Counted from the whole stretch's first letter, positions 4,246 to 63,300 are shown. The stretch is DNA of 63,625 nt, filler included, from Rhabdomonas costata (GCA_019059605.1; 15 parts of 15 records of this genome joined end to end with filler, not necessarily neighbours in it), one strand, 5' to 3'. Notes: generated by a model from the sequence alone, not told the origin. Translations and numbers: made by a program.

Positions 4246-4438
4246 GGTGTGGGGGGTGTAATGATGTCCCTGTGGGACTGTTCAAGGTAGGTTCGGGAGT
4301 CCTACTCTGCAGCCCATTCTAACTGAATGGGCGTGTGTGATGTGAGTTATCGGAGGCTCCATCCCGTAACGAAGGGGGCATATCCTATGTTTGTTTACAC
4401 GAACGCTCCACCGCTCTTCCTGTCCCCATCGGCCGCAG

Positions 4439-19626: not shown

Positions 19627-19656
19627 CACACACACACCCTCCCGCCGCCCCTGAGA

Positions 19657-25414: not shown

Positions 25415-25514
25415 NNNNNNNNNNNNNNNNNNNNNNNNNNNNNNNNNNNNNNNNNNNNTTAATTAATTAANNNNNNNNNNNNNNNNNNNNNNNNNNNNNN
25501 NNNNNNNNNNNNNN

Positions 25515-28500: not shown

Positions 28501-29180
28501 TTTCGGTGACACCCGATGGGTTGTGGGTTGTCAGCGGAAGCAGCGATAAGTCAATCAAGCTTTGGGCTCTACGCACAGGAAAGGAAGAACGCTGCCTAGT
28601 CGGTCACCGGAGTTCCGTCTTTGCTGTGGTGATTACTCCCGACTGCAAACATATTGTCAGTGGAAGTGGAGACAAATCTATCAGAGTTTGGGAGTGGCAT
28701 AGCGGGAAAAACGTTTGCACTTTTTCAGGTCACCGCTCTTCTGTTCTCACCTTAGCCATGGTTCCCGATGGGATGCATGTTGTGAGCGGAGGTGAGGACT
28801 TTACAATTAAGGTTTGGAATCTGCAGCGTGGAAATGAAGTGCACAGCTTTTATGGCCACCGTGGCCGCATCAGTGCTTTGGCTGTGACTTGCCATGGATC
28901 GCACCTTGTCAGCGGAAGCTGGGACAACACGCTCAGGGTGTGGAATTTGCAAGATAGTAAACCAATCGACCTCCATGACCATGACCGTGGCTGTTCTCTT
29001 GATTGCAGTGCGGCGGGTAAGTTACGCAACGATGCCCACGACTTCCCTGCAGCGTCCCTTTCCCATCGCCCAGGTTGTTGTCAGCTTATTTTGGGCTACT
29101 TTTCCCCAATTGTTGAGGACGTCCTGCTCTCGTCTGATGCTTTTGCACCTTCCCTACTTCGGCATCAATCTGGCAATTAA
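25515..29180 (+). CDS. NLR-like STAND protein: NACHT NTPase - pentapeptide-like linker - 13 WD40 repeats (5' truncated)
   Basis: Walker A SSGGTGKTS, Walker B MICDSWDE, TPVLATM, winged-helix FSHLSLQEFFAA, AAANAMTL followed by DLSRC..DLRDASLEQA, then 13 GH...SGSxDxTIKVW repeats of about 42 aa. The frame is open back to the contig start; first ATG at 25545. Confidence 0.93.
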   Translation, partial: GRGFLRPGGTMFVVRSARAKAIFFLSAFVEELECLLPPTVFSIRDALPVSILRMMEIQGSVMLLEDSDPSRSVEQSRVGSGRVPSRCNSVTSKLFLQRKLHFLFEPLRATHVVVHATADREHQEVPYELQSRVLEKLRVSGTEKEKIPTEVVLSSGGTGKTSTALLIQDRLLDPNAGFGSIACIFLSLPLAGTNLHDCNGMARFFETTMNLTAEDFDNAEEKSIVMICDSWDEVQPDVGRVEALRRMILTRQECVTRYKLEANFHAEILGRKKGEELVQKVLDIPELRELIATPVLATMLCTAGDSVLQELRKQRRQALNCGEIYRIVLEAQSTRELKQRLGEEPEITKGLFVIKTSCQEIALQMCATQTTHLPMFNVRSVFLRHLRLCASVFTGIHAMEAPESSEEKDFVDTLLYSSPLRMGRLREPEALVSFSHLSLQEFFAAQLLVVHPSIVGHEVYVCRLDLRGLPALRAFVCDLLVHRPMQEQQRWVGLMRDAVEATRGDPHHKTSEGTLESLWNSEEGGPRCRAAANAMTLIAAVNHTIQGWDLSRCRFPGAFLDGLQVIHSNWRGIDARHCIWTRPRLVDVDLRDASLEQAICGEEPPLLGHSAPVEAVVATPDGMHLVSGSSDNTIKVWNLHTGKEERCLTGHRGSVLAVVITPDGMHLVSGSNDNSIKVWNIHTGEEERSLTGHGGGVIAVLATPDGTRLVSGSSDKTIKIWNFQTGRVERSLTGHTGPVRSLALLPDGAGLVSGGKDNTIRVWNMQTGQEERCLVGHSSGVYTVIVTLDGMRLISGSYDSTIRVWNLQTGKEERIITGHARPVTSLSIMPDGARFVSGSTDNTVKVWNLQTWKEERSLSGHSGSVMSVTVTPDGMRIVSGSYDNTVKVWNLQAGKGERSLPGHIGAVHALAVISKSDETRLVSGSADNTIILWDLKLGKMERILKGHNATVYCVSVTPDGTRLVSGSGDNTIRVWDLRTGEELRSLNGHKGYVHTVSVTPDGLWVVSGSSDKSIKLWALRTGKEERCLVGHRSSVFAVVITPDCKHIVSGSGDKSIRVWEWHSGKNVCTFSGHRSSVLTLAMVPDGMHVVSGGEDFTIKVWNLQRGNEVHSFYGHRGRISALAVTCHGSHLVSGSWDNTLRVWNLQDSKPIDLHDHDRGCSLDCSAAGKLRNDAHDFPAASLSHRPGCCQLILGYFSPIVEDVLLSSDAFAPSLLRHQSGN

Positions 29181-33878: not shown

Positions 33879-34136
33879 CTAGAGAGTGTACCCAAACCNN
33901 NNNNNNNNNNNNNNNNNNNNNNNNNNNNNNNNNNNNNNNNNNTTAATTAATTAANNNNNNNNNNNNNNNNNNNNNNNNNNNNNNNNNNNNNNNNNNNNTA
34001 TTCACACTTCGCTCCCACCATTCTTGTACATCTTAGGCATGCGTTCCCGAAGCGAATCCTCCGACTTCACCCATGCGGCAAACGGCACCACTCGCACACC
34101 CACCACCACAACACCCACCATCGACATGCACCCACC

Positions 34137-36170
34137 ATGCACATTCTTGCTCTCCAGGTCACAGCTTCAGGTCTTCCTTTGGGAGCAAAAGCATGCAACA
34201 CCTGCGCCATCAGCAAAGAAGCCAATCTCCCAGATGTTATTGTGGTCCAGCTCAGATCACACGTCAAGCGTGAGTTCGAGGTTCCCTATGTTCTGGGCAA
34301 CGGATACGAAATCTGCTCGATGTGCTTCTCCAGGAGCGCTGGTGCCTTCTCAGGATGGGCAACGCTGCAGCAAAGCAGAACAATGGCGGGAGAAAAGTGC
34401 TGGTTTCAGTGCCATCAGAATTACGTGGATGAAATTGGACAGCACCTCCCTCGCATTACACTCGACAAAGGAAGTCAGGCGATTTTGATATATTCTGATC
34501 CAACTTCCCACCCAGCACCAAGGGATAGCAAGCTGCGCCATATTCCTGAGCACGACAACTCCGACGACGACTCCTCTGACTCTTCCTCTGATGCTGCCGA
34601 CATGGACGACAACTACTCACACAAACAGGACTTGGCTGATGCCTCACTTTACAGTTCGTTGGCTCCCCCAAATGACGACGAGGAAGACGAGAGCAATCCC
34701 GCACCCGTGAGGTCAGAAATTGTGGAATATGAAATTCCTGGAAGAAAGGAAGGACTCCACATTCTCCTGTCATCTCTGGCAGAAGTCAACATGAATCCCA
34801 AGGGCCTCAGCAACTGGGTGAGGAATTTTACATCCTCCGTTACCTCCAGACTTCCCCAAGTTCCAGATGTCACTCAATACCTCGAAGCCTATCTATTCAC
34901 GGGTCACTTCCCCTTGAAAAGCCTAGGCCACTTCCCAGGCTGCATGCCGCTTTACCTCTACTCATCAAGAAATGCACCCCGAAACCCGTTTGTTCGCTTT
35001 CACGACTATGTTAAGCAGGTCATCTGTGATGCAGAGGGCACCAGAGGGGCTGACTCGAGCTGGATTGGCTATGCCTTCAACGTGATGCTAGCCCAGATTG
35101 CTGACCGTGGACCCTCGCTGACGGTGGTAAAAAAAGGCCTTGAGAGCGCCCTCAGGAACAAATTCTCACAAAAAGAGTATGCTGAAAGGTTCGGGGATGC
35201 CATATTGCCAAATATGCTATATGATGCCGCAGAAGCCAAGAGGCATGTCGACGAGCTTTGCGCTGCCATTGCTGCCATCGGAATTCCAACATACTTTCTC
35301 ACCCTGTCCTGCAACCAAACCAGATTTCCAGGAGTATCCATCATCCACGATGCCATGAAGAAATCGGACGGTGACCCCATGGCCTTCGCTGCTTTTCTTC
35401 AGCGTACATGGCACAGAGTAATCACGCTCTTCCTCAAGTGGTTGCAGCATGGAGATGAGAAGCCGCTGGGCAACGTGCGTCATGTTTGGGCTCGACACGA
35501 GTTCCAAACTGATGTAGGAAATCTGAGCCACGTTCACCTGTTTGTATGGACAGACGAGAATGTCGGCGACCCTTCTCTAACCTCGTTCTCTGAACACTGC
35601 GCTCTGGCCTTGAGCAGGATTACGGCAACCATCCTTGGAGCCTTCGACGAAGAGCCTAATTCTGCTGAACTGGAATCTCTGGCGCGAGACATTCAGGTGC
35701 ATAAGTGCAATGCGAAATGTACCCTCAATGGTTACTGCCGATTTGGTGCACCTTGGCCAGAGTGTGACGCACCAGAGGCTGTGCAGATGAAAGTTGAAAT
35801 TCCACCGGAGCTACAACGTACACTCCTGCGCTGCAATTTGGCAACCCAGGAGGCAGGTAAATTCATATTATCTCCAGTTCTCACGGGAATTAAGCACTGT
35901 CCTCCGCGCGGTGTTGGATGCAACAGGGTCAGCATTTTTTGCCCAAAGATTTTCGCGGTGACCCAATCCCACCTCAACATTCAGGTGTGCAACGGAAGGT
36001 TTGTGCTGGCATACCTTGTCAAGTACTGCGCCGAGGAGGAGGAACGCTGCGTGGTGTCGCTCAGAAAGTGTTCGGAGACCTCGTGCACCGCAGAGATCAG
36101 TGATCTGAAGAAACGGAAAAGGAGATTATTGCCAACTCCTTCGGACAACTCTCATGGCTCCGTTATTTAG
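34137..36170 (+). CDS. Helitron Rep (HUH/Y2 endonuclease) part
   Basis: Motif I PTYFLTLSCN, motif II RHEFQTDVGNLSHVHLFVW, QVHKCNAKC...CRFGAP, motif III YLVKY. N-terminal CxxC...CxxC. Confidence 0.9.
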   Translation: MHILALQVTASGLPLGAKACNTCAISKEANLPDVIVVQLRSHVKREFEVPYVLGNGYEICSMCFSRSAGAFSGWATLQQSRTMAGEKCWFQCHQNYVDEIGQHLPRITLDKGSQAILIYSDPTSHPAPRDSKLRHIPEHDNSDDDSSDSSSDAADMDDNYSHKQDLADASLYSSLAPPNDDEEDESNPAPVRSEIVEYEIPGRKEGLHILLSSLAEVNMNPKGLSNWVRNFTSSVTSRLPQVPDVTQYLEAYLFTGHFPLKSLGHFPGCMPLYLYSSRNAPRNPFVRFHDYVKQVICDAEGTRGADSSWIGYAFNVMLAQIADRGPSLTVVKKGLESALRNKFSQKEYAERFGDAILPNMLYDAAEAKRHVDELCAAIAAIGIPTYFLTLSCNQTRFPGVSIIHDAMKKSDGDPMAFAAFLQRTWHRVITLFLKWLQHGDEKPLGNVRHVWARHEFQTDVGNLSHVHLFVWTDENVGDPSLTSFSEHCALALSRITATILGAFDEEPNSAELESLARDIQVHKCNAKCTLNGYCRFGAPWPECDAPEAVQMKVEIPPELQRTLLRCNLATQEAGKFILSPVLTGIKHCPPRGVGCNRVSIFCPKIFAVTQSHLNIQVCNGRFVLAYLVKYCAEEEERCVVSLRKCSETSCTAEISDLKKRKRRLLPTPSDNSHGSVI

Positions 36171-36179
36171 GTCACGGAA

Positions 36180-38140
36180 ATGCTCTTCCATTGCTTAGCT
36201 CTACCGTCCATCTACACCACCTTTGACTCTGTCCACGTCAACACGGGACCAAGCGAGACCCGCTTCGTGACCTTAAAGCCGAGGTGGAAGCCAGGTGCAG
36301 ATTTTGGAGCACGACAACCGGAAGACCCATCCCGGTGCGGAGCAGAGGAAACCGAGAATGGTGGCTATGCCCCCCTCCATCCGACCAGAGAGCCTCACCC
36401 TGATCAAGAACTGTCCATGGGGGAGCTCAGGTGTCAGCGCACAAACGCGGATTCCGTCATGAAATACTGTCTGAGACCACCGGAGCTCTATCATTTCAAG
36501 TTGGACCACTACTACGCTCTCACGATTCCCAGCAACCCTCCAAGATACTCCAGAGACACATGGCGAGTGGAAAACTGGATTGCAAATGGGCTATATGACC
36601 TGCAGGGAAAGCGCATTTATCTCCGTCCAGCAATCGCAGGCTTTCCAACGCTGATTTCGACAATGTTCGACCTTCTTGAAGGCCGTCACCTCGTCGAAGA
36701 GTTTATGCAGTGCTTCCAGAAGGCACCACCTGCAGGACACTGGTTCTACAACCTTGTGGACATAAATGCGAAGTACGCAGTTGTTGTCCATCCGCGTTTC
36801 ACTCCAAGCCAGCCCTGCAATTGGTGGATACAGAAAGCACTGCGCTCCGTGCCATTCGGGAATGAAGGCATCCTGCTTCGAGACCATCTTCCCAGGGTGA
36901 TGAACGAGTTCTCGTCCACACAGGAACTCGTAAGATCGTTTGTCCTGTCCGAGTTGCGGTACTGGCCGATTGGATATCGACTGTTGTTCACCACCATTCA
37001 AAACATCTGGAATGCAGCACAAAGTCCTGAGTTTGCGACCTTCAGCTGGGCATGCTGCGAGGATGAAATCTCTGAAAAGTTTGCTGATTCCTGGAAGGAG
37101 TACAATGAACTCCGGCTTGCTCGGCACGAACAGATGCTACGTCACGTTCCAAACTTTGAAAAACAACCTTCGCAGTCGGTAGCCAGCTGGAACGAGCAGG
37201 TTCAGGCATGGAATGCGATTGAGGCACGGTTTGCACCGCTTGCAAGGGAGCCCCTTTCGTTGGATATGGCACCCTACGTCGCGCCCCTTTACATCTCCGG
37301 GCCCCCTGGAAGTGGAAAGACGTTTCTTCTACTCTCCTTTGCCCGTGCCCTGTCGACAATGCAGTTTCCCGTTAGCTGGGAGATCACTGCTTTATCTGCG
37401 AATGGGGCCTGTGAGCTCGGCGGCGTCCACATCCACCAGCTATTTGGGTTTCGAGTAAAAAGAATCGGGAAGATTGCAACAGCTGCTTCCCTTGCAGCTG
37501 CGGCATACGCAAGGCTCGGACGGCAGCCACTCAGGCGGCGAATCCTTCAAGAAATGCGCGTGCTCATCGTGGACGAATTTTGTCACGTGGGTGCCGTTTT
37601 GCTGAGTGCAATGGACATTTTGCTCCGGAAGGTTAGGCAGTGCAACAAACCGTTTGGTGGCCTTGCTATTTTGGCATGCGGGGATCACTACCAGACGGAG
37701 GCGATTGGGGAGCCCTGTCCTCTTCTCTCTGCTCTTGTCCGATTCCACTTCTCCAGCATCGTGCTCCAGACAATGTACAGAGCAAGAACGGACGAAGATC
37801 TTCAGCGGCTCATTTCGATGATGCGAAAGCCTGTCCTCGCCAAATCGGAGAGCGACCTCATCATTCACATCTTGGAAAGCAGATGCAGGTTCTGCTCCAG
37901 CGTACATATGGTGCCTCCTTCAGCAACCTGGCTTTTGTCCAAAACTGTCGCCGTTGAAGCCGCTCGACATAGGAAATTCACAGATGCTGTGCAGCCCAAG
38001 ACCGCTTTCCACGCTGAAGATTTCTTTCTGGACTGTGGATCCTGGAAAAGCGGGCCACCTTCATGGTGCTCACGAACTTTGGACAAGCAGAGTGGTCTTT
38101 CCTCAACGGTATCAGCCATTACCAACGAACCCAAAAACCC
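36180..38140 (+). CDS. Helitron Pif1-family SF1 helicase part (3' truncated)
   Basis: GPPGSGKT, ELGGVHIHQLF, LIVDEF, KPFGGLAILACGDHYQ, LQTMYRA. Confidence 0.92.
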
Positions 38141-38240
38141 NNNNNNNNNNNNNNNNNNNNNNNNNNNNNNNNNNNNNNNNNNNNTTAATTAATTAANNNN
38201 NNNNNNNNNNNNNNNNNNNNNNNNNNNNNNNNNNNNNNNN

Positions 38241-44394: not shown

Positions 44395-47263
44395 CAGAGT
44401 GGGGGGGAGGTGCTCTTTGAGCTTCGATTATCGCTTGTATCCCTTTTGGAGGAACCAGCCACGTTTCGTCGCTGGTGATGCGTTGCAGGCAGCCCGCCTA
44501 ACACTGGGTCACACTGGACTGACGCGAGTTTTCATGGATTTCAGTCTCATTTTTCAGTCTGTAGGTAAATTTTTGTTGTTTAAAAAGTGACCAACCAATT
44601 GAAATGTGCCGAATGAGTGATGATTGAAGAGCGTGAATGCAAAGAATAGAGCGGTGAATCGTACTCCAGCCGTGCCTCGAAATTTTGAAACTTCCGCCCA
44701 GCATATAAAAGTTAGTGTCTTACATTCAAGTTGCGACAAGTCAGATTTCAACCTCACCTCCCTCACCTTTTGAAATATCTTCCTCGCAGTACTGTTGGCC
44801 TTGGAGAAGCGGCTTTGCTCGGCTGGAATGCTCAGCCCGCAGTGGACGCGGACAACCAGTGTCTTTTGGAGGAATGGAGTGAGCAGAACCGCGCAAGTGG
44901 GGTCCCTCTGTGGTCACCTGTTTCGCTTAGAGGAGAACACGCGGTATGCCGCTCGCCATCCACCTTTCTCCCCCACCCCCTCACTGCTTTTCTCGACTTT
45001 CTGATTTTTTGGTAACGTGCAGTTTTGTTCCGGGGAGCCTACCGGGCTTGTGAGGAGTTCATGAGACTTTTTTTTGGGTTTTTGGGTTTTTTCCGTGTCA
45101 CTAGCGTTCTTTTTTTTCAGCTGGAATTGTACTCAGAAGGTGACGAGCCGCTCTTAATTTCTGGACCGATTTGTAGCTGTCACATGCTGTTGGGCTCAAG
45201 AATTGATTGGTAACGGTGTAAGTGAACAATGGCGGGGGAAGCAACACCACCACCCAAGCTCATAGGCTTCTCTCCGGGTTTTTCTCGGTAAAGAGGTTTT
45301 TCTCAGTAAGCTGTTTTATGCGGGCATTCCCATGTGTTGATCCGTCCGCACGGACTGGGAAGCGTTGGAAGTAAGCCAACTACTGAGGTACAACACCCAC
45401 TCCAACGAAGAGGTAATGTGCACGGTGTCTCTCGGGTTTCAAGTTGAACCTGACCCACCCATTCCCGTAGGGGGCTCCTCTGTCTTTTTATTCTGTTTGC
45501 TGCTCCAAATCACCGTGAACAGGGTGTTTAGGATTTTGCAGAATTAGCTACACCTGTGCGGCGGCAAAGATAAACTTTAGTCCTTTCTGTTTTCAAACCT
45601 GTGCCTTGCGCTTTTGTCGCCAAGCGCAGCAGACGATCCAAGGCAGCCCAGCGTCACTGTTGGTTGTGTACCTTCTCTTGCCACTCCAAAAGGGTTGGCG
45701 CTTGCAGCAGCCTCTTTCTGGAGACGCGCTCTTCGTGGCAGGCTGCCGTAAAAACCTTGGCGCGGTCCAGCTCGGGCTCGCTGAGCTTCCCTGTGGCCAT
45801 CCCTGGCTCATGGGACCAGGACGATAACCTCTTTGAGGTGGTCCTGTGCTGCTGCTGCTGTTGCGAGAGGAAGGAGCTCCTCGTTTCACAGAGAGACAGT
45901 AAGGAGGACACATCGAAGCCGGACTGGCAGGGGCAGGTGGAGACCCTACATGAGCTCAGCCAAGGCCTTGCCAACGGTATGACGGTGCCCCAATGAAATG
46001 GGGGTGAGCAGACCCCTTTTGCGAGCTGGTGTAGCTTACGAAGCAATGCCTTTGATGCGATGTCTGCTTCGCGCTCCTCCTATGTTAGTGAGGCAGGAGG
46101 GTGTTTTGTTGCGGTCCCTTTGTGCTGAGAGTTCTCCCCCCTTCCCCGCGAGCGTTGTGTTGACGCTAAGATGACCTTGTCCTTGTGGGAGAAACTGGGA
46201 AAAGAATTCGCGCTCGGTCGTGCAATGCCTTGCGTAAGTAGTGGATCTCGGGCTTTGGTGTGCATCACATAGCTCTCCGGAGCGGGAACCCTGGTCTTTA
46301 TACAGCGGAGTGGTTTTTGATGCGTGGAAAAGAAGACTGTGAAGCGAAGAGCGACAAACAGTTTGCGCATTCTGCTATACTCCATGCAAGCTGGAGAACA
46401 ACGGGCAGCAATCGGTTCGAACAGACATCCTGAGAATTATACAGGGAACAAAAATCTTTGTGCGTGGCGAGCGTATAATGCTTCAAAAGGAAAAAAGGAA
46501 GGGAAGAGACTATCACTTTCAGAAGGGGGGCTGCGAGAGTCCTCCTTGCATCCCTGTGGCAGTGAACATCTTTTCCTGTTCTTCAATTCACTGACTTCTT
46601 CTTCTTCTTCTCATCCCGTCTCAGGCTGACCACCAGCTTGTGGAAGAAAACACAACCCAAANNNNNNNNNNNNNNNNNNNNNNNNNNNNNNNNNNNNNNN
46701 NNNNNTTAATTAATTAANNNNNNNNNNNNNNNNNNNNNNNNNNNNNNNNNNNNNNNNNNNNTGTGTTGGGGAGAAAACCCTGGGTGCGTTCGGGAGAGAC
46801 AAAAACCATCACATGGATTCCACCAAGCACCGGTTTTGCGGCGCTAACATCTTTGTATGCATTTTGCGGTGCCGTCCATGCACCGGACGCACTATTCTTC
46901 ATCGCGAAGGAGTAGTTTCACTGCACCCACACAACATTGGGCGCGTTATTATTAGGAAATGGGGTATAGATAAACTTTGCACGCACCTGCTGCGTCTTCC
47001 GACATGGGGACATTGGAACACCTTGGCCGAGGACCCACGACACGAGGAAGGAGCCACCTCCAAAGAGGGGAAATCCTTCCTCGTCTGCTATTGCTATCAT
47101 CACAGTCATCATACGGCGATTAAGATCCGAATAATACTGCGGGTGGCCCTTTGTGCCGTAGTGCTGTGACTTTTTCCTCGTTTATTTCCCTGCGGAGATC
47201 TGTGGGTATTCATGTGGGGACTCCCACAGGCTAAGTTTTTGTTCGGGGCGCACTTTGTTTCAG

Positions 47264-50200
47264 TTTCGGCGTGCAACGTCACCTTGGCGGGTGGCACGCG
47301 GGTGATGAGTATGGTGCTGGGGCAGTACAGTCTTGGCGGGCTCTACCTGGGGCGGCCGTACCACGTCAAGTCCAACTACTACCTGTTCTACGTCCCGGGC
47401 GTGGGTTGGGTGGTGAGCTACGGCCTGGGCCAGACGTACTACTACGCCGTCGGCCCGCAGGACGTCGCGACTCCGGATCTGGTCACGACAACCTGGACTG
47501 CTATCAGTGGAAGTGATCAGCTGTCGGACCCCGGCCTGGGGGCAGCCTGCACACGTGTGCCCCCGATGCCCCTCCCTCTCTAAACATTGTCTTTGGGCTC
47601 TCTTTCGGCAATGCCTGCCGAAATTTTTTTTTGCTGATGCTTGATTTTCTTAGAGTTCGTGTTTTTTTTTGGTGGGGGGGCGGGGTGTGGAGCGGAACCT
47701 TTAGTAGTGAGAAACTACCTTAGCACTGCTGAACTTTTCTTTTGGCTTTTGTGTAGTAGTTGCTTTTTTGAGCAAAAAAAAATCTGCACGGCACGGCACG
47801 GCACGGCACGGCGCCACTTTTTGGTGAAAGGTATATAGCAACTAGGGTATGGTGAACGAGGCATTAATTTCATTGGGGATGGGGGAAGACTAGCACGGAG
47901 TGGATGGCAGGGTTGGAACGTTCGTTGGGTGGACGATGCTCCGTCCTATACGGTGACCGTATAGCAGTTCTAATCCCCTGAATGAGTCACTTTTTACGGC
48001 CTCGGAAGTAAACTGCGGCAACAATGCAATATGCAAAAATGTGTTTAGGCTTACTGATCTTGCTCTCCCGAGAATTGCATGACTAGAGGAATGAATGGGG
48101 GATTAGAGAGTGCCTCCCCCCTCTAAATGTAATACCCCCGGTCATGATGCACCCTTGCTTTTCACCCACAGCACTGGACTGTATAGGCTTCGACGTCGAG
48201 GAACCCGTGTGGTTGTTGTGCGTTTGTTGTGATGTGCAGCGAAGCCGACCTGCGGCAGTAGCGGGCTTGTTTGCTCTCGCGGCTACGCCCTGAACTCCAC
48301 CGTGGTTTGCTCCTCGACGGTTTGCCGGCAGAGCGAATGCTGCTCCGGTACGCTTGCGTGAAATTTCGGGATATGTGTGTATGTGCGATTATCTGTAATA
48401 AAAAAGAGGGTCACCGCTGTTCACTCGTCCCCATGTCCTAGTCAGGCCGTGCGCGGTCGTGTCGTTGCATGGCGGAAAATGGTGGGTATAGAAATGACCT
48501 ACTTAGTTGCTCGGTGATGTCAGTGAACGGGAGGTGGGCCTTCCTCTCATATGGGAACCCCCCCCCCCAAAGAAACGGTCCCTCAGAAGAGGTTCCCCTC
48601 ACCATCTGTGAAGCCGGGTGTGGCGAGGAATGTTCGGGGTGTTTGGATTTTTGTAGATGCTCCGACTTTACCGTTTTTATTTATTTTTGCCCTCGGATTT
48701 TTTTTTACATCAATCCATCCGGCATCATCGTTCCAGCTCACTCTATGTGCCGTTCGCCTTTTACCTTTGGCCTTGGGCTCTCCCGGCTCTGTGAAGTAGT
48801 GTGTTTAGCGGGGGGGGGGGTGAGGGTTGTAGAGGGAACAAGTGGAGAACAGGATCGCCTGTTTGAATATTGCTGGATTCCAATGGAAACTATGCACTTT
48901 ACACGTGCTCCGTCGGATTTCAATAGAGGGGTTAAGGGTAGGAGCATGGTCCAATGATAGAAGCAGATGATTCCAGATTACAGTTTGTCAAGTGCTGCGC
49001 AAGATCCCGGGGGTTTGACGCTCCTTGGCTGCTTATTTCTTTTGTCTTGGGAACCATTTTACTACGTGGGTTCGATGATGTCACTGATACCCCCCCCCCC
49101 GGCACACACGGGCCCGAAAATATGCTCATGGGAAAATTGTTCCCTCCCTCCCCTCACACACACCCCGCACCTCCATCGTCCCTCAAAACATTGCTGCGTT
49201 CATACAACGCTGGTTGACTCCAAGGAAGAACCAGCTAATTTTCCTGGTGGATTTTCATGGACACCATCGGAGGGGAAAACATTGCCGGAGCATGCACCAG
49301 CAATTCATTCCGTTTATGCTGTTCACGGTTTGTTTATGATTTTGGGTTTGGAGATTAGTTAGCCGTTATTACAAAACCCTCCCCACAGTCCCCTTGTGAC
49401 CGTACACACCACTTCACAAGATCCACATCCGCTCACTCTGACTTCTCGTTCTTCTCACTCGCCACAGCGGATCCTTTTCACGCCAAAGCCACCGCCGTTT
49501 CATTTTTTGCGGGCCACCGTGTTGTCATGTTTGTCATGTTTTCCACTCCTGGTTATGATGCCCCTGTGCTGTTTTTTCCTTGCTCAGTTGTGCCGTGCAA
49601 CATCTCGATCAGCGGCCGCGTGGGGTCGAACAGCGTGATCAACGGGGTTTACTTGATCACTGGGGAGTACTCCGGCCGCCCCTACTACCGCAACCCAGGC
49701 ACCTCCACCGTGTTGTACTACGCCCCCACACAAGGGTGGTCGCTCAGCGGGACCTTGGGGATCACCGGGGGGTATGCCTACAACACGCAGAACGTCAGCA
49801 CCCCCGCCATGCTTACCTCGGCGTGGCTCGTATGGAATGGCTCTGCGATGTCCTCGGACTCCGCCGTGAACGCGTACTGCACCAGTGTGTATCCCTCCCT
49901 TGTTGTGCCCGTTTGTGTGTATTGTTGGGTGGAGTAGGATGGGGAATATAGAACTAGTAGTGCCGTGCCCTGTTCTCCGCAAGAGTGTCATGCGCGATGG
50001 AGCGCATAGACAACTTCCGCTTCCAAGTGCACTCTCTCTTGTTGCCGTGCTGTGCTGGGGAACGCTCCCGCCTTGCCCTTCACTTTCCTTTTTTCCCGTC
50101 TATGTTGCGCCTGTCCGCCTTTGTGTCCATGTAACTGCAGCGATCGTGCAAACCTTTTGCTGCCGTAGTGTAATTGTAAAAGTGAAGACCCGTGTGTATG

Positions 50201-50552
50201 TGTGTTTTGGCGTCGCTCGAGGTCCGAAGCTCGACATCTTATGGGTTGTTGTCCACCACGAAAACAGCTGGCAAACGCCGCAGGCGTCTCGCAAAACTTT
50301 TTCGTTCGTGTGGTGCTATGTGTTATGTGTTTTTTGTGCATCCCTATCCGTCTGCCGCGTCGCCGTAAAGAGCGTACAAGGCAAATGGTTCAATCCCTTC
50401 CGCCTGCTTTCTTCCATTCCTGCCCGCCCGCCTGCCCATAGGCCAGCTGTGCTCGTACTTCACGAGGTGTCCTGTGGTGGGGCGATTCCGCAACACCTCC
50501 GCCGTCTGTTCCCAAGACCCCTGCACCTCGACCTCGGAGTGCTGCATTAACG
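47264..50552 (+). CDS. Partial extracellular protein with alternating ~98-aa aromatic beta-type domains and ~36-aa 6-Cys modules
   Basis: Exons 47264-47554 and 49588-49884 (C...GxY...GRPY...LY/FY...GW...TP...W...SD...C) alternate with 48240-48347 and 50442-50552 (C..C..C..C..CC). All are GT-AG and phase 1-1. Confidence 0.85.
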
Positions 50553-51380
50553 GTGGGCCTCCCTGCGCTGTGTCCTTGAGTTTTGTGCAATGCAGTACAA
50601 TCGCGGGTGGCAGTGGAAAGGCTCTTGCGCGGGATTTTTATGCTTTATGCTGATTTGTATGGACAGGTCGTCTTGCAGACAGCTGCCCTGCCCTGCCATC
50701 TGATTTCCCACTTCTTCTTTTGGCCGCTTGACTTTCTGCGTTCAAGTCCTCTTTTCCTCGTTTCCTGATTGCATCCCTGCGTCGTCGTTCAGCTTCCAGC
50801 CTCAACCTCAGTACCAAATGCACCGCCCCAACATGTCCTGACGACGTGCATAGCCATTCCGCTGCCTGTGCTCTTTTTGTNNNNNNNNNNNNNNNNNNNN
50901 NNNNNNNNNNNNNNNNNNNNNNNNTTAATTAATTAANNNNNNNNNNNNNNNNNNNNNNNNNNNNNNNNNNNNNNNNNNNNCCTTTTTGCCGACATCCTCA
51001 TGGGCGCTACCAAGGTTGCATTGGGTTGGTTTCGTGCTCAAAGTTCCTTTTTTGGTTCCACCTGATGATTTCACCAGAACCTTTCACCAGCCTTGCACCA
51101 GCAATCGACAAGGGAGCTGCTGAATCTCTGGAACACCGGAAACAGTACAAAGACCAGTGGCAAGAGGGAGCGGACAAACATCTGATGACACGGGAGGAAG
51201 AGAACCGCGCCTGTGGCAAGGACAAAAGTTCCCAGAATCTGTATGCATAAAGAGAAGTAGCGGTAAGGGAGGCCGAAGCTTTTATGTTCTTTTATATTCG
51301 GAAGGTGCTTCGGACGGCTCCGAAGGCCCATTTGATCTTTCGTTGTGCAGCTTTAGGTTATGGTCTCCGTTGTTCCCCAG

Positions 51381-54998: not shown

Positions 54999-55103
54999 GT
55001 TTGCTCACAAAAAAGCAGTACGAATCAGCCGCCAAGGGGCAACCCATCGATCCGATGGGTTGCCCCTTGGCGGCTGATTCGTACTGCTTTTTTGTGAGCA
55101 AAC
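54999..55103. repeat. Terminal palindrome with 51-bp perfect arms and a 3-nt loop
   Basis: 54999-55049 is the reverse complement of 55053-55103 and ends flush with the contig. Confidence 0.95.
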
Positions 55104-55203: not shown

Positions 55204-58200
55204 TTGTTTGGGGGGAGCGCGGGGAGGGAGGCCACCGGAGAGCCCGGGGCGCCCGCCCAGCACCTGCCTCGCAGCTGCACGCTTATCTGTGTGCATGAGT
55301 CCGAAACCAGCACAGCTACGGGCACACACCGTTGCAAGGAGGCACAAATTCGAGCAATTCACCGTTCAGCTTCAAGTTTTCGGTCAAAGCGGCCAATGAC
55401 GGACGAACCTGGCGAGTTTTCGTGAAGCCGGTCTTCAGGACGTTCTCTCACCAGACAGAATCAGTTATTTTCAAAAGGGCACTCACCACAAAAACCGAAG
55501 GGCAGCACTCGGAGGAACGTCCACTTCTTCACGAGCAAAATGTCCCTGTGACCATGCCAGTGGGGGTCTTTCGAAACCCTCAACGGGCTAACCCTCACAT
55601 GGCGCCTTCGATCCACGTCCCTCAAAACACACATGAGACCAGTGTCCATCGAAACACACATGCATGTGCACTCACACTGTCTCCTTGCTTTTCTCTGCAG
55701 ACAACACAAAAACATACCCCCCCCACCGAAAAAGGTGAGAATGACCTTCCCGCGGAGACCAAATTAGCGCACAAGTGCCCTTACAAAGCTCACTGACCTG
55801 GTCGCTGCTCTGGTTCAGCATCAGCCCAGAGACGACCACCTCCACCCTCATATTGGCCACCGCGGAGCCCCACAACACGGGCAGCAGCCACGGCGGGGGC
55901 ACTGCAACAGGTACAGCGGCCGCGCTGAGGCCCGTGGGGCCCCAGGGGAGCACAGTAAGAATGCCAACCGCCACACAGCCCACCACAGAGTCTGCGGCCA
56001 GGCGCTCCAAAGCAGAGGCACTCCACCCCTCCGCCAGGGTTGCGGCGCAGACCTGAAACGCAATGCCCCCCGTCAGGCACTTTATTTTCGATTGACAAAA
56101 AACAGTGGATTGAAAAATAATAAGAATGGTATTTCTTTTCTCAAAAATGTTTCAAAATGTTTGGACCTTTCCCAACAAAACCATGGTAGATTTGAGAGGT
56201 TTCACTTTCAAGGGCCCCGCAAGGGGGGAGAGGGGGCGGAATAGGACCCTCAACCTTTGGCACCGCTCCAGCGATTAAATTAGGTGATGGTGCGGCTAAG
56301 GCCGCAGCGGGGGAGTTACCTGACTCAAAGCAACTCCAAGTTTGTTTCAACCTTTAGCAGGCCAACTCCGCCCAAAATACTCTACGCCACGCAGAAGCAT
56401 CGTTCCTGTTCAGACCGATCTGCCTCCAGTGGGCTTTCAGAATTCATTCCGGCTTCCAGGCTGCAGCTCACACTAACAGTGTAATAGTCCTGACACGACA
56501 CCCTACCCACACATACTTGGAACGTCCCCGAACTATCCACGCTCACGGTCAAGGCGCTAGCGTTGCCCAGGGCCTCACCTCCAATCATGCCAGACACCAC
56601 GCCGAGAGTGTAGTCATCCGAGAGCCATCCCAGAGGCCACCCCAGCCTCCACCACGTCGAGTAATTCCCCGCACCACACCCACAACCCCTGAAGGGGTAC
56701 CCCACAGGGCCCACCGGGTCCAAAGTCTCGCTGGCGTTCTGGCACAGCAGGACTCGAGTGGTAGCTAAGCTGAGACCAGTGCCCTGAACCGTGAGCTGGA
56801 AGGGGGTGCTCACGACGGGCAGGGAGGGGATGGCGGAGGCAGAGACAGGCCCCGACGAGGCCAGAGTGAGGTGGCCCAGGAAGGTCGGCGGAGAGAAGAG
56901 CTGGGCGTAGCACACCCCGTAGGCAGGGCCGGGAAGGGTGAACCGGACGACAACCTGAGAGAAAAGGAGATGACAGGGGGTTCTTAGCACACCTCTTTTA
57001 ACAGAGAGCTCCGGGGATTGGGGACATGCAGCTTACGTTTGCAGCTGCGCTAGGCACTATTGAAGGGACATCTTGGGTGCCCTTAGCAGACCTAAAGATG
57101 AAGCCCAGGATAACAGGATGCTGCGACCGGAAGGCTGCGAATGGGCCCTCTAAAAAGGGCCCATACTTTGGAAGTGGGGGTTCTTTGAGGCTGGCTGCGG
57201 GTCCCTTTGTCCCTTTTGAATGTTAGAGGAGACCCTTCCGACATTGAGTGAACTTCCGGAAAGAAACCCAACTGTAGGCTTCACGCACACACACAACAGC
57301 GGATGCGGGAAGCGACGCGTACAGCATTGCTGCTCTGATGGACGATGCCGTCCCCCTCCGTGGGTCCAGCGTAGGGGTCGAAGCTGGCCACGGTGCCTAC
57401 CACAGCGGTGGCGCTTCCGGGCACGCACTCCCCCAGGTGGGCCGGGTCCAAACTGTACATGTCCCCATCTACCAAGTCCTTCCCCTGGAAGAGCACCTCG
57501 AAGGGCTGCCCAGCCACGGGCTGCGAGGGCAGGAAGCTGGCCGAGCTGCAGCCCAGAGGGAAAAATGGAGCACTGAATGTGGTGTAACGGCGTCATTGGC
57601 TCGACAAATAAAAGTGTCCACCGCGTTATGACCTCGCACCACACAACCACACCACACAAACACACAAAAGTTACTGTGGGGTCCAATGCAAGAGCCATTC
57701 GAAGAGGTCTCTTGTGTTTTTTTTTTGGGCGGGAGAGCGGCGCCCATCACGTTCAGCAGCTCCAAAAGTTTAGCAGTTTTCTTTCCAAGGGCCCGTAAAT
57801 TAGTAATTTAAATCTTGTCTGTATAGGGCGGGAAACCAGTGTAACTGACCCATCCGGGTTCCAGGTAGTGCGCACACTCTACAAAGCACTGCGAGAAAAA
57901 AAAGGTTCAGTTCGGTCGTTGAGCATCCTCAACGATCAGCAGTGCCAACTGGAGCATCACCCATCCAATGGAACGTCCCAACCTACCCGCCCAACAGCGG
58001 CCCTACAATAATCCCGTCCCATTTCTCTGTCAAAGCCCAGCAACGACAATTCCCTAAATTGCGCGCGGAAGCTAAAAACGTTTGCAGTGCTGAACGTTTA
58101 GCAGTACTAAGCATTGAACGCCCCCCCCCTAAAATTGCCCTCGTCACCTTTAATCTGAGAGTTTGTTTTTTGAGATGCAATCTTAAGGAGGCATTTTTAT

Positions 58201-58965
58201 CTTAAATGGGAGTGATATTTTTCAGGGAAAAAGTGTGAAGCGGAAGGTCTGTTAAAAGTTTGCAGTTGAGCAGCATTGCTGTTGGAAGCTATCTTTTATC
58301 TCAAACGGCACTGAAAAGCGATATAGTGACATGGTTTCTTTCAGGGCGCATGGCGCGCTACTTTTTGGGGTGCTTCAGGAATTTTTCAGCTTTTTTGGAC
58401 ATTAAAGCGACCTTATGAATGTCATCACAACCCGCCTTCAGGTTCCGTGGTCATTGTTTTTTGGCAGAAGTATTGCTTCGGATGTAACTCTAACTCATGC
58501 TATGGTCCCATTCAGCTGTGCAAGCGTCCGCGTGAAAGGAAGTAGACTTCGTTGCGTTTCAAATCATAATCTCTGCAGAAACCCATGACAGGTAGTGGTT
58601 TCGGTATCGGTATTGCAGACATCTCCGAGATAGAGGTCAGTGGAAAAAAAGGGAGAAATCTAAATGGAATTCTGGCTTGGAGCTTGGACTCTCCCATTCC
58701 CAAAATCCCCTTCCCTGAAAGAGAAAGTGTGGGTGTGGGAGGAGGCATACGCGACGTAGTGCTGCCTGCACCGCGGATAGCCCGTCCACTTGGGGGCACA
58801 CTCGCTGCAGTTGCGGCCGGAGTAGCCCTCGTCGCAGGTGCAGTAATCTAGGGTGCCGTTGCACGCGCCGTGCCCGCTGCACGAGAAGGCCCGAGTGCAG
58901 AACCGGCACTCCGGGTACGTGTAGAAGTCCGGCTCGCAGTGATCACACTGGGTGGAGTTGTAGCC
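55204..58965 (-). CDS. Partial extracellular protein: laminin-type EGF repeats followed by repeated beta-sandwich-like units
   Basis: Phase-consistent GT-AG exons 58965-58751 (CDHCEPDFYTYPEC..CSGHGAC..CTCDEGYSGRNCSECAPKWTGYPRC), 57545-57323, 56954-56517, 56052-55798 and 55286 to the contig edge. Recurring FxxxxxGxxL...C...GxY/FxVC pattern. Confidence 0.8.
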
Positions 58966-59588
58966 CTACAAAACAATAGGGAGCAAGTCCCGCGCATGAG
59001 AGAAACAGAAACGGGAGCTGTAAGGCGCGACCCAAGCACATAGACACGAGTGCAGCACACACACCACTCTTACCAAAAGTATCCGCCTGGCTTCCTGGAC
59101 TGGGTTACCGTTTTTTGGCACCAGGACACCCCCCCCCCCATACCATTCACAAGCCCCTAGCTTGTTTGCTGGACCGTAAGCTGGTTTCGGCGACACAACA
59201 ACCCTCATGCCCAGCATAACGGTGCCATGAGCGCAGGTACACTTTTTTCTTTCTTCTCTCTCAATTATTGCAGACCGGTTTGCCCCACCACAAAAAAGCC
59301 CTTCGAGACAGCCCAGGCACACCAAGTCNNNNNNNNNNNNNNNNNNNNNNNNNNNNNNNNNNNNNNNNNNNNTTAATTAATTAANNNNNNNNNNNNNNNN
59401 NNNNNNNNNNNNNNNNNNNNNNNNNNNNTTGGGGTTCCCGTAGTAGCCGTCGGGGCTCGTCTGCGCGCGTACCTGGGGCGCGATGCACGGCTTGATATCC
59501 TTGTGGGGTCTCCTGATAAACATTGACCCCGATGCCGGTGACTTGGGTGAAGGCGTGTGTGTGTGTGTGTGTGTGTGTGCTCGCGTAC

Positions 59589-60350
59589 CTCCTCGACGTC
59601 ACAGATCCCGGCAGAAGGGTGACAGACAATGGTGAGCTTGACGTCATGCGGGCACTGAGCGTCGCTCCCAGTGCAGTACTGAAAACGTAAGAAGAAGAAG
59701 AAGAGAGAGAGAGCGCGAGGATGAGGGAGAGAGTTGCTCGCGAGCCGTTCTCATTGCAAATACAATGGCAAGTGAGAATGAATGAAACCTCAATGGCGTC
59801 GCAATCCCCGGCAGCGTTGCGGCACGGGATTGCGACGCCATTGAGGTTTCATTCATTCTCACAAACCTGAGAAGATCAGTCATTTCAGAGACAGTACACA
59901 ATACCACAGAAAGCATGCCACAGAAAGCATGCAAAACGTGCGCGCACCAAGCAAACGCACGCGCATCCCTGAGCAGAACATCGAGCAGAACATGAACGTT
60001 CGTGGGCTGGATAACGGCGACACCGATGGCGACAAAATGAGACAAAGAAATTGAGCATGTACCAATAGGAAGCATGCTGAGCGATCCGCGAGCCGGTTTT
60101 AGGCACAGTTACCACACCACATCGAGGAGAAAGGCAACCATTAATGATGACGCATACGCGCCCTACATGCAATTAGGTCATCTGGAAAGGGCCCCCTCCA
60201 AGCACGCAACAGGCCCACTCCAAAAGTGCCTTCGGCCGTACCTCGGGCGCGTCGCACAGCCCGAGGGCCTTCCTGCACATCGATTTCGCGGGAAGCACCT
60301 CGTCAGGAGGGCAGAATGGGTCGATGTTGTTGCAAGACTCCGCCACGTCG
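59589..60350 (-). CDS. Two exons of a disintegrin-like Cys-rich repeat protein
   Basis: Exon 60350-60242 (DVAESCNNIDPFCPPD..CRKALGLCDAPE) joins exon 59678-59589 (YCTGSDAQCPHD..CHPSAGICDVEE), GT-AG, phase 0. Confidence 0.8.
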
Positions 60351-63300
60351 CTGAGGGCATAAAAGCATATGGAAAGCAAACCGTGCTTGCATTCGCACAC
60401 GCTCCACCCCTCAGAAACCCTCAGAAACCCAGACGTGGTCCTTCAGCTTCTGCTCCTGTTTCAAAGTATAAGTCTGAAATGCAAAATGAGAGATGGTTCC
60501 ACTTGGGCACTTCAAAGATGGGAAAGACGAGGAAGGGGAGGGGAAGCAACACCCAATTTAGTGAGGAAAAGTGAAGGGAGGGTTTGGATGGGACGTGTCC
60601 CGCATCAGAATCGTTGTCAAACATGCCAAACAGACGTGCGCAAACATTCACCAGTGTAAAACGTTGAGGTCACCGCTTGCCCACGCCCACTCTCTGAATC
60701 ATCCTAAAAACCCCACCCCATAGGACCTTTGGTTGTGGGTTACCCGTGACGGTTACCGGAATTACCCTTTTTACTCGTAAGAGCCTGCGCACATTCTGCA
60801 GTTATCCAAATAAACGTGTCGCAGCGATATTTGGGTAAAGGGGTTACATGCACAGTTTTCCATGGGCTAACGCCCAATACTACTGCTTAGTATTGAATTC
60901 TGCTCCCAGCATCCACCATTTTCACGTCAGAGGCTGGGCTGGTTTGTGTGGCTTCACAGGGTACACGTTGATTTCCAATTCCCTTGGGCTGGGCCTGGTC
61001 GCCTACAAGCCCTTTGTAAGTCTCAGCCGTGCGATCTATGAGAACGAGGACCTGTACGCGGAGACGGTTTGGGCGGCACCTCTCTTCTCCTTTCTTGTGT
61101 TGGCTTTCTTCCAAAGCGCTGGTGTATCTGGTTTTTTAAGCCTGCCTGATGGCACTGGTGAGCCCGCTTTTATCTTGCATTATGTGTCCCACTTTGTCTG
61201 TGTTAGTGTGCGACGGCCTTGCCTGCGACACCTTTTCCATGCCACATCCTTGAAGAGGAATCGCTGACTGCGAAAAGTTGCACCGCCCCAAAGCCCGAAC
61301 CCTTGCCCTCATGCGTAATACCTCAGAAGCCTTCAATGCGAATTTCATCACTTCCCCCACCCTCTCACAGCGGGAAATGTCTCTGGTCTTGAACCCCCGC
61401 CTATGTAGTCGCCATGTGTGGCGAGGTAATTTCGCAAAGATGACATTACAAGCATGTCCCCGTTTCGATTGCCTTATTGCCTTCAAGGTTGCAGGCTACT
61501 GCAGAATATTGGTACTATTGGTTTGCGGTTTGATAGGACGCACGTCTCCATCCCAGGTCCGCAGCTTGCCGTCCCAGCAACGCCTGAGCTAATCTAACGG
61601 GTTTCGGGTGTTATGTTGGTCATGTTCATTTTTTACAGGTGTACCTCTCAGGGCATTACGTCACCGAAGGTGTGTAAGTTGTATGGTGTGAATTACGGCT
61701 GTTGTGCCTCCATTTGCAGATCACTACGATGTCTTTCGCTCCACTCTGGTGAACCTAACCCCGTTTTGCAATTTCGAAAGCAAAGAAAGAATGAGAAATC
61801 TCCAAAACCTCCAAATGCTCAAGACCCGAAATCGATGAAAAGACTACGAAGCGACACTTTTGGAGTTGTGTGCGACTGTTTGAATTTGTCTTCAAAGGTG
61901 AGGAAACCCATCGAATTTTCATCAAGGACACCGACCTGGGGAGAGAGCTGGAGATGCAGATTCGGGACCTCAAAACGTACGCTCAGCTTTATACATGAAT
62001 CCTGTGCAGGGGCCTCTTGAATATATCCTTAGCAACGAAATGTCCCCTTCCCCAAAACCGGATTGTAGAAGATCAGCAAATCGACGTCCTCTTTGCTTTT
62101 CTTTGAAAGTTGTTCATCCAGGTTATCCGGTGATTTGAAATGCGTTTTGGTGGACACTTCATCACGCCACTTTCATTGCTGTTGATGGGGTATGCCTCTT
62201 GCCCCCGTGAACTGCGCTTTTTTAGCTGAAAAGCATTTCCACGCGCAACGATGTGGTTTGAATAGTGACATCTTAGGGCGGGGACACTGTTTGTCCTTGC
62301 AAAGGCTGATCCATGCCTATCATGCGGGACAGAAGAGGCAAACCGCGCCCACCACGCACACTCGGGCCCTGCTGCCCTCGGAGTGGCTCCCGAAAAAGTG
62401 ACCGAATAAGGAAGCAATAATTGGGTCCTGATATGCACCTCTGTAATTCTTTTCTTCTTGTCACCAGTGGTTGCTTCTGATCTCTGGGAGGGGGCATAGT
62501 GTATTCTGATATGACGTTAGTGTTTGTGTCACGTGCTAAAAAGCAGGATCGCCTCCTGAGGTGATCTATGCATTGCGGTCTGTGGACTTCCGGGGGTTCA
62601 GTTTTCGATCTTCGTTTACCGCCGAGCACTTTGGCTTTTGGCGAGTGTACAATACAAGCGTGTCTACACGAATTATAGCTAACTTCTGTTACTTGTTCCC
62701 AAATTCTTTTTGGTTTGCTTATCCTCACGAATCTTTCTTACTGTGGTTTACAGCGCAGTACCCCAGGGATGCTGGGGTTTGCGGCTACTTCGGGTTGCGT
62801 TAATGTCTAGTGTGCCCGGGAGTCCACCTCGGCAAATTTCTTTTCGCTTTGCTAGTTGGAGATGCTCAGAGCTGCTTCTCAGCGTTCCTGACTGGTTGTG
62901 CATACGGAGTCTTGTTAAGCTTGGCTTCTTGACGACTGCTTGTACTTGTTTCACATCGAGCAAATGGACCTGAGCTCGCGGTTCTTGTGGTGATAGCTTT
63001 CGCTGGATTCCGAACCGAGCTTCGTTTTCCCGAAGGGTGGGATGAGTGGCCATTTTGTTGGGTTGTGAAACACGGTTGTGAAACAGCTGTTGTTAATCGT
63101 TTGTTGTCACCTGATTGGGAAGCTGAACTGAGGGACCAAAAAAGCAGCAATGAATTGAAAATGTAATCAACCCATTTCTCGGGCCCGCGGGCGCGCTTTG
63201 ACTCCAGTCTCCAGCCTCGTTCCGTCCGGTTTGGATTTTTCATGTGCTTTTGCGAACCGGTAGCTTAACGGCAATGGGTTTTTCAAAAAAGCCCCCACTC

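Follow-up and report, generated by a model that had tools for sequence, protein, structure and literature searches.

The window, by which we mean the whole 63,625-nucleotide stretch of Rhabdomonas costata DNA (GCA_019059605.1) analysed here, is a chain of contigs of about 4.1 kb with linkers of the form N-TTAATTAATTAA-N between them. One contig (G000:C345, 46762..50880, lying between N-linkers) holds four predicted exons of a single gene, all on the plus strand. Exon 1 (47264..47554; 291 nt, about 97 amino acids) encodes a domain termed module A, and is followed by intron 1 (47555..48239; phase 1, 685 nt, GTGTG...GCAG). Exon 2 (48240..48347; 108 nt) encodes a six-cysteine module, termed B, of the PTCG subtype. 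Intron 2 (48348..49587; phase 1, 1240 nt, GTACG...TCAG), in which a scan with a codon model found no additional exon-like stretch, separates it from exon 3 (49588..49884; 297 nt), which encodes a further module A. Intron 3 (49885..50441; phase 1, 557 nt, GTGTG...ATAG) leads to exon 4 (50442..50552; 111 nt), which encodes a six-cysteine module termed B'. The lengths of the four exons are all multiples of three, every exon is preceded by YAG and followed by GT, and each is open when read as phase 1-1, that is, with phase 1 introns on both sides.

Splicing exons 1-4 in silico yields a stop-free frame of 268 amino acids, containing 16 cysteines and six N-glycosylation sequons. The GC3 of the four exons is 0.80-0.90, and the GC content of the introns is 0.49-0.53. 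The codon model, built from paralogs elsewhere in the genome, gives the four exons scores of 51, 51, 13.5 and 12, the next best score in the contig being 3.0, and ranks the predicted borders first, second, third and first among overlapping candidates, at most 0.3 units below the best. Splice sites, open frame and codon-model scores thus agree with the original prediction of exons of 291, 108, 297 and 111 nt at these borders. Exons 1 and 3 have donors inside GTGTG runs, where further candidate GTs follow 2-4 nt downstream, so that the phase of these two exons is ambiguous when judged by this contig alone. The two A modules are homologous (38% identity, E 5e-19), while exons 2 and 4 have six cysteines in common and are otherwise weakly alike (E 0.063). 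Four symmetric exons carrying one module each had been proposed in the order A-B-A-B; the layout stands, and sequence comparison refines the order to A-B-A-B', exons 2 and 4 being different subtypes of B. The gene is a fragment, a middle part without its ends; neither a signal-peptide exon nor a C-terminal exon was found by the codon model in contig 46762-50880, and no close match to the gene was present among the retrieved proteins. The source assembly comprises 97 Mb in 104,289 contigs, most of them shorter than 3 kb, and complete architectures are therefore seldom seen.

Module A has an invariant first and last cysteine, and the exon alone is predicted to form a compact all-beta domain (pLDDT 96 for a model of the exon 3 copy). 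Module B is a small six-cysteine unit, modelled with a pLDDT of 90 and a pTM of 0.50. A Pfam search with the four exons gave no match; across 41 A members the best E-value was 0.0053, with no family in common beyond WW in three, and across 33 B members it was 0.065. For module A, Foldseek found no match in the PDB at E <= 0.001, a PDB sequence search reached E 0.62 at best, and the best row from VIA-align was a DNMT5 segment (Z 7.2, rmsd 2.9, 90 aligned residues), which lies below the level that the tool rates as reliable. A structure search with module B returned no row with Z >= 2, longer proteins searched by words of exon 3 yielded no match, and a protein atlas gave unnamed clusters only, with a low recognition score. 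Blank fold searches of this kind do not demonstrate new folds for A or B; A may have an undescribed beta fold, one that extracellular proteins of invertebrates use as well. A profile search with A reached 1,471 representatives at E <= 0.001, including an astacin-CUB protein of Owenia, MAM-SRCR and trypsin-EGF proteins of Branchiostoma, and proteins of Tigriopus, Salpingoeca, Paulinella, Vitrella and Digyalum. Some of these carriers also have TIR, RING, calpain or kinase domains, and A, as classified by such matches, is a promiscuous pan-eukaryotic domain that is not extracellular in every case. The corresponding search with B found 14 relatives.

The genome carries intron-bearing paraflagellar-rod genes, one exon of which is 100% identical to a Rhabdomonas costata protein (EukProt P0005), compared with 78-83% identity to named kinetoplastid and Diplonema proteins. 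The A and B exons match R. costata proteins at 81-100% identity. Donors of the form GT[AG]TG are used in module genes and housekeeping genes alike; the donor consensus given for Euglena gracilis in the accessible part of PMC11170887 is GTGTG. For R. costata itself, the accessible text of PMC8219788 describes 39,456 proteins predicted from a transcriptome and hand-checked introns with GT/AG borders. The DNA is euglenozoan and not animal, and on these matches it is most likely euglenid. The caveat attached to the original prediction, that the DNA might prove to be metazoan, is largely ruled out by the paraflagellar-rod genes and the R. costata protein matches.

Matches in the genome number 79 for A and 132 for B, and 69 distinct A copies and 58 distinct B copies were examined for the phase of their borders. 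On the acceptor side of A, the nearest YAG before the first cysteine is in phase 1 in 55 of the 57 copies with enough flanking sequence, with none found in the other two, and an AG lies 2 or 8 nt upstream of the first cysteine in 56 of 57. On the donor side, the first GT after the last cysteine is in phase 1 in 49/52 copies, and follows it by exactly 4 nt in 48/52. These cysteine-anchored AG and GT positions match the exon borders of A to its domain borders. The acceptor of B is in phase 1 in 37/43 copies and the donor in 45/55; six of the nine phase 0 calls are a valine codon directly behind CC. Among copies with both ends visible, 42 of 46 for A and 34 of 41 for B are 1-1 exons. The copies are divergent, with a median identity of 35% for A and 50% for B, and since the A exons end with G in 22 cases, with A in 19 and with C in one, the split codon is frequently not glycine. 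The paralogs are not independent of one another and amount effectively to some seven types of module; as the copies are related and some of the families were picked after inspection, Fisher tests on them are given no weight.

A baseline was drawn from paraflagellar-rod, HSP70, CCT and kinesin genes, in which 85 introns were inferred by profile scoring and 77 kept, the other eight being discarded because they overlapped or had a low margin or score. For kinesin, of which viral contigs yielded no reference, the profile came from exons of the genome itself, which leaves the kinesin phases less sure. The 77 introns divide into 42 in phase 0, 25 in phase 1 and 10 in phase 2, and one of the 21 internal housekeeping exons is 1-1. 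The frequency of 1-1 exons among A and B is far above this baseline. A phase-blind predictor trained on housekeeping introns only, with a training-set accuracy of 52/73 for donors and 62/76 for acceptors, made 1-1 calls for 21/40 A, 30/40 B, 4/6 sushi and 3/10 TSP1 exons. For A it placed 23 of 44 donors in phase 1, as against 46 of 49 acceptors; its misses are mostly donor-side, and the GTGTG runs are probably the cause. In an ankyrin control, the same predictor called 1-1 in 2 of 18 exons (from 24 of 169 matches, a sample biased to long exons).

Three paralogous junctions are spanned by transcript-predicted R. costata proteins with both exons on one locus: signal peptide to A (P0173/L010), A to LRR cap (P0265/L065) and B to B (P0277/L057). 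At each of them three splice points would give the peptide, one is canonical, and that one is in phase 1. Two further proteins, P0165 (B'-A-B'-A) and P0143 (signal peptide-A-B'-A), have a spacing of cysteine anchors across their junctions equal to that of the gene model in the window. A hydrophobic, signal-peptide-like N-terminus is present in six of the seven relatives checked, and the phase 1 intron behind the signal peptide was seen in one case, L010.

Several other extracellular modules follow the same rule. A second contig of the window (4246-8396, plus strand) holds an EGF+CUB unit of two exons (4439-4599, phase 1-0, and 4953-5244, phase 0-1), a B exon (5438-5551) and two sushi-like exons (6400-6585, with a GC donor, and 7228-7404), the last three being 1-1. 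The sushi family, searched for independently of A and B, has its donor in phase 1 in 9/9 copies, 4 nt past the last cysteine, and its acceptor in phase 1 in 6/7. For TSP1, with 12 of 13 matches examined, the acceptor is in phase 1 in 9/12 and the donor in 8/12; the phases of both families were read by eye from cysteine anchors, and several of the TSP1 copies are near-identical and three do not fit. PSI-like modules make up a 1-1 exon by themselves in two near-identical loci and are joined to B with no intron between them in seven others, and FAMeT-like exons are 1-1 in L310 and L311. An LRR-cap exon that opens in phase 1 lies behind A in seven loci; in the one locus scanned (L015) it matches Pfam LRRNT_2 (PF08263) and LRR, and the LRRs lie in one frame of 251 amino acids. 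In CUB, the C-terminal border is in phase 1 in 7/7 copies and an internal phase 0 intron splits the domain in 7/7, while the junction of EGF and CUB has no intron. This fusion, together with the phase 0 split, suggests that modularization of the EGF+CUB unit happened locally.

The rule has exceptions. EGF repeats are a classic 1-1 module of animals, in which CUB likewise forms a self-contained 1-1 module. In R. costata, arrays of tenascin-type EGF (EGF_2), examined for 22 of the 49 matches, are 1-1 in 5/19, with exons that cut across the repeats, and two fn3 exons are 0-0. Within the window, the exon of a disintegrin-like repeat (59589-59678) is 0-0, and a gene with EGF-laminin and Ig-like domains (55204-59328) has acceptors in phases 0 and 2. 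Profile searches of the genome returned two matches for fn3, three for SH3 and none for Lectin_C. The 1-1 system takes in a group of small closed modules and does not extend to every surface gene. The original prediction called for a genome-wide excess of 1-1 exons at domain borders in secreted as against cytosolic genes; the excess holds for A and B against housekeeping genes, and the signal-peptide-like N-termini of the relatives agree with a destination outside the cell, but the EGF arrays, the disintegrin-like repeat and the Ig-like gene do not conform.

Modules that move between genes should be found with a variety of partners. The neighbours of A are the signal exon, B', B, A and LRR, and those of B are A, B, CUB, sushi, PSI, FAMeT-like and EGF. 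The PTCG subtype, to which exon 2 belongs, is found elsewhere mostly in tandem-B, PSI, CUB and FAMeT-like genes. In a tree of 81 B rows, 17 B' copies form one clade (support 99/91, and 100/100 in a 39-row subset), all 17 of which, exon 4 among them, flank A; exon 2 falls outside this clade among the other 64 rows, of which four flank A. The trees were built from 35 columns for B and 102 for A, and the B groups were named after the first tree. A sister relationship between exons 2 and 4 is rejected (p-AU 0.017), and the gene in the window is therefore not a simple recent duplication of an A-B pair; a tree in which exon 2 joins the B' clade is compatible with the data (p 0.45). Most of the A tree lacks resolution, a sister relationship between exons 1 and 3 is likewise compatible with the data (p 0.29), and seven of the eight A rows from outside R. 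costata stand apart from most R. costata copies, with weak support. The slot between two A exons is filled by B' in L003, L051, L052 and L089 and by a PTCG-type B in the window, an arrangement that would fit a cassette exchange. No case of a recently inserted cassette with recombination breakpoints was observed.

We judge it rather probable that these genes belong to a system in which class 1-1 modules of secreted proteins are shuffled, one that is probably convergent with that of animals. Convergence is favoured because the EGF arrays and the N-terminal border of CUB differ from the animal pattern. A broader form of the reading, in which euglenids evolved a genome-wide class 1-1 shuffling toolkit for secreted and surface proteins independently of animals, has about an even chance of being correct; the domains of that toolkit would be TSP1, sushi, PSI and CUB, which animals have too, with the unnamed A and B. 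Mobility of modules between genes is likely, and independence from animals is plausible. Exon shuffling as first proposed from the window alone thus gains from the 1-1 layout in divergent paralogs and several domain types, at a frequency above the baseline, and is weakly favoured by the diversity of partners and the tree of B subtypes.

The stretch of four exons would then be the middle of a gene for a euglenid secreted or surface glycoprotein, built from two small disulfide-closed modules. The set of cassettes would comprise A, B and B', sushi-like, TSP1, PSI-like and FAMeT-like modules, the EGF+CUB unit, and a phase 1 entry into the LRR exon. Cassettes that begin and end in phase 1 fit any phase 1 intron of such genes with the frame intact, and recombination inside the long (0.5-1.2-kb) introns could duplicate, delete or insert them with the frame kept. 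A phase 1 intron after the signal peptide may have seeded the class, which later modules would have had to match; this would be the same bias as in animals, where Patthy proposes that the phase 1 intron after the signal peptide fixes the module class (PMC8001218, in the part available). With A placed before the LRR exon in seven loci, a variable extracellular binding or receptor-like role is the likeliest for proteins of the form signal peptide-(A-B')n-A-LRR, and we would give this assignment an even chance; A and B may form in them a stalk that varies in length and serves for spacing or binding.

Tandem exon duplication and duplication of whole genes could also have produced such an arrangement, if a few ancestral secreted genes had chanced on phase 1 introns at domain borders. 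A proto-splice bias towards signal peptides and glycine would favour such introns, symmetric exons would survive duplication, and modules would rarely have moved. Many loci are indeed plain runs of B or alternating A-B', B copies that adjoin each other on a contig frequently group as sisters, every B' copy goes with an A, the A tree has no resolved switches of partner, and phase 1 already accounts for a third of the housekeeping introns (25/77). Duplication alone is nevertheless unlikely, given that B adjoins at least six unrelated module types, that a PTCG-type B occupies a slot between two A exons that is filled elsewhere by B', that PSI is found by itself as well as in fusion with B, and that the codon split at the end of the A exons is often not a glycine codon, their terminal bases being G, A and C in the proportions given above. 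Animal contamination, or chance AG and GT calls on an assembly artefact, might be suspected in that A, CUB, sushi and TSP1 are found in animals, the assembly is very fragmented and the window has fold-back inverted repeats; set against paraflagellar-rod genes with introns, the exact exon match to R. costata P0005, the A and B exons at 81-100% to R. costata proteins and the Euglena-like donors, this explanation is highly improbable.

An ancient shared origin, in which the 1-1 borders descend from an intron-rich early eukaryote or arrived with transferred intron-bearing genes, is also unlikely, marginally more so than duplication alone. The occurrence of A in extracellular proteins of amphioxus, an annelid and a copepod, and in a choanoflagellate, Paulinella, Vitrella and Digyalum, is what such an origin would lead one to expect. 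Against this, EGF repeats are not 1-1 in R. costata as they are in animals, CUB is without an N-terminal border intron, and the outside A rows stand mostly apart in the A tree, as weak as its support is there. TSP1, which is listed with kringle, laminin-EGF and FN1/FN2 among the class 1-1 modules of animals (PMC3927616, accessible part), is class 1-1 in R. costata as well, and this speaks for common descent. For a choanoflagellate and Arabidopsis, the accessible text of the review PMC8001218 gives no signal of shuffling and that of PMC3045794 at most marginal ones, and only one of 15 hsp90 introns is common to two euglenids according to the part of PMC8219788 available, such that intron positions turn over; both points count against an origin of this age.

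Class 1-1 shuffling of the kind proposed for R. costata can be compared with systems described elsewhere. In the accessible text of Patthy's 2021 review, exon-shuffled extracellular proteins of this kind are restricted to animals, and are all of class 1-1 (PMC8001218). The modules of R. costata resemble the metazoan ones in that exon borders coincide with domain borders, phase 1 introns lie on both sides, the modules are of a cysteine-closed, probably extracellular type, a phase 1 intron follows the signal peptide, TSP1 and sushi are held in common, and A is predicted to be mainly beta. They differ in that they belong to a single-celled euglenozoan, A and B fall in no Pfam family, neither EGF arrays nor fn3 exons are 1-1, CUB is joined to EGF and interrupted by a phase 0 intron, a plant-type LRRNT_2/LRR exon is among the partners, and donors are GT[AG]TG. 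Brown algae shuffle exons of ROCO LRR and NB-ARC-TPR genes, using 72-nt phase 2 exons (PMC11378527, accessible part), and offer a second non-animal case of symmetric one-repeat exons in candidate recognition proteins. There, however, the reshuffling concerns a single repeat type and stays inside its family, and each 72-nt phase 2 exon encodes one LRR, whereas in R. costata several unrelated domains are mixed across architectures, the exons are phase 1, and the LRRs lie in one long frame. The succession of A and an LRR-cap exon in seven loci also recalls LRR receptor-like proteins with an LRRNT_2 cap, although the LRR exon is not in the contig of the window's gene and no transmembrane or kinase part is linked to it. 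In 87 of 88 genomes, some protists among them, Smithers, Oates and Gough (2019) described an alignment of exon and domain borders, using a test that ignores phase and citing the strong 1-1 excess as metazoan (PMC6547436, accessible part); border alignment is common to that study and to ours, and phase was counted only in the R. costata analysis. A full-text literature search, largely of open-access papers, listed no report of class 1-1 shuffling in euglenids. The main text of the R. costata paper does not contain 'phase' or 'shuffling', nor do the supplements searched contain 'phase', 'CUB domain' or 'sushi', and the accessible portions of PMC3488318, PMC5560861 and PMC12621601 had nothing further on class 1-1 shuffling outside animals.

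Module A would represent a widespread mobile domain without an entry in the Pfam copy searched. If the reading of a class 1-1 shuffling system in R. costata is true, exon shuffling would be separated from multicellularity, the host being unicellular and very distant from animals. It would break with the view of 1-1 shuffling as an animal-only process, and would provide a natural replicate for the question of why phase 1 wins. The preference for phase 1 would thereby become testable, as convergence under a signal-peptide bias versus inheritance from an early eukaryote.

Genes for surface proteins in the window follow more than one exon layout. The second gene fragment (4439-7404, plus strand) combines an EGF and CUB portion, the small six-cysteine module B and two sushi-like exons, with outer borders that are all phase 1 and a single GC donor. 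The surface-protein gene at 55204-59328 (minus strand), which has laminin-type EGF and Ig-like exons and a C-terminal hydrophobic stretch, is a counter-example to the phase-1 layout: all of its acceptors fall in phase 0 or phase 2. In a stretch of disintegrin-like cysteine repeats (59429-60360, minus strand), a phase 0-0 exon at 59589-59678 has borders that fall within the repeat unit. Repeats also occur in two long open frames, labelled by eye, where no introns split them: a P-loop-like motif followed by WD40-like repeats (25467-29180, plus strand) and an F-box-like stretch followed by leucine-rich repeats (19627-21012, minus strand).

Module B and a PSI-like module are fused in a single exon, with AAG acceptors, in seven loci of the assembly (L322, L323 and L327-L331), and are unfused elsewhere (compared loci L325 and L326), which suggests that the intron between the cassettes was lost. 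In the transcript-predicted protein P0275, PSI follows the B exon, whereas contigs L056 and L058 have a second B after a near-identical B exon; the discrepancy could reflect paralogy, skipping of an exon or a rearrangement of recent date.

Two long frames at 33951-38192 (plus strand), parted by one stop codon, resemble a Helitron-type Rep/helicase in their motifs. Near-perfect fold-back inverted repeats with 3-nt loops lie at 54999-55103 (51-nt arms) and 59772-59862 (44-nt arms); one is at a contig end and one duplicates an exon end, and both look like amplification chimeras. An intronless, AT-rich HSP70-like fragment (L101, G000:C22180) differs in composition from the remaining genome and is possibly foreign DNA within the assembly.

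For the predicted all-beta module A (model of 49590-49883), a segment of Cryptococcus DNMT5 gives the top structural match (7r76, residues 871-1158; rmsd 2.9, 90 aligned residues); its Z score of 7.2 is far higher than that of the next match (4.5) but below the reliable range. At L015, L017, L023, L051, L065, L067 and L089, an A exon is followed by a long exon encoding a plant-type LRRNT_2 cap and leucine-rich repeats (LRRs); these loci probably encode one euglenid family of receptor-like LRR proteins.
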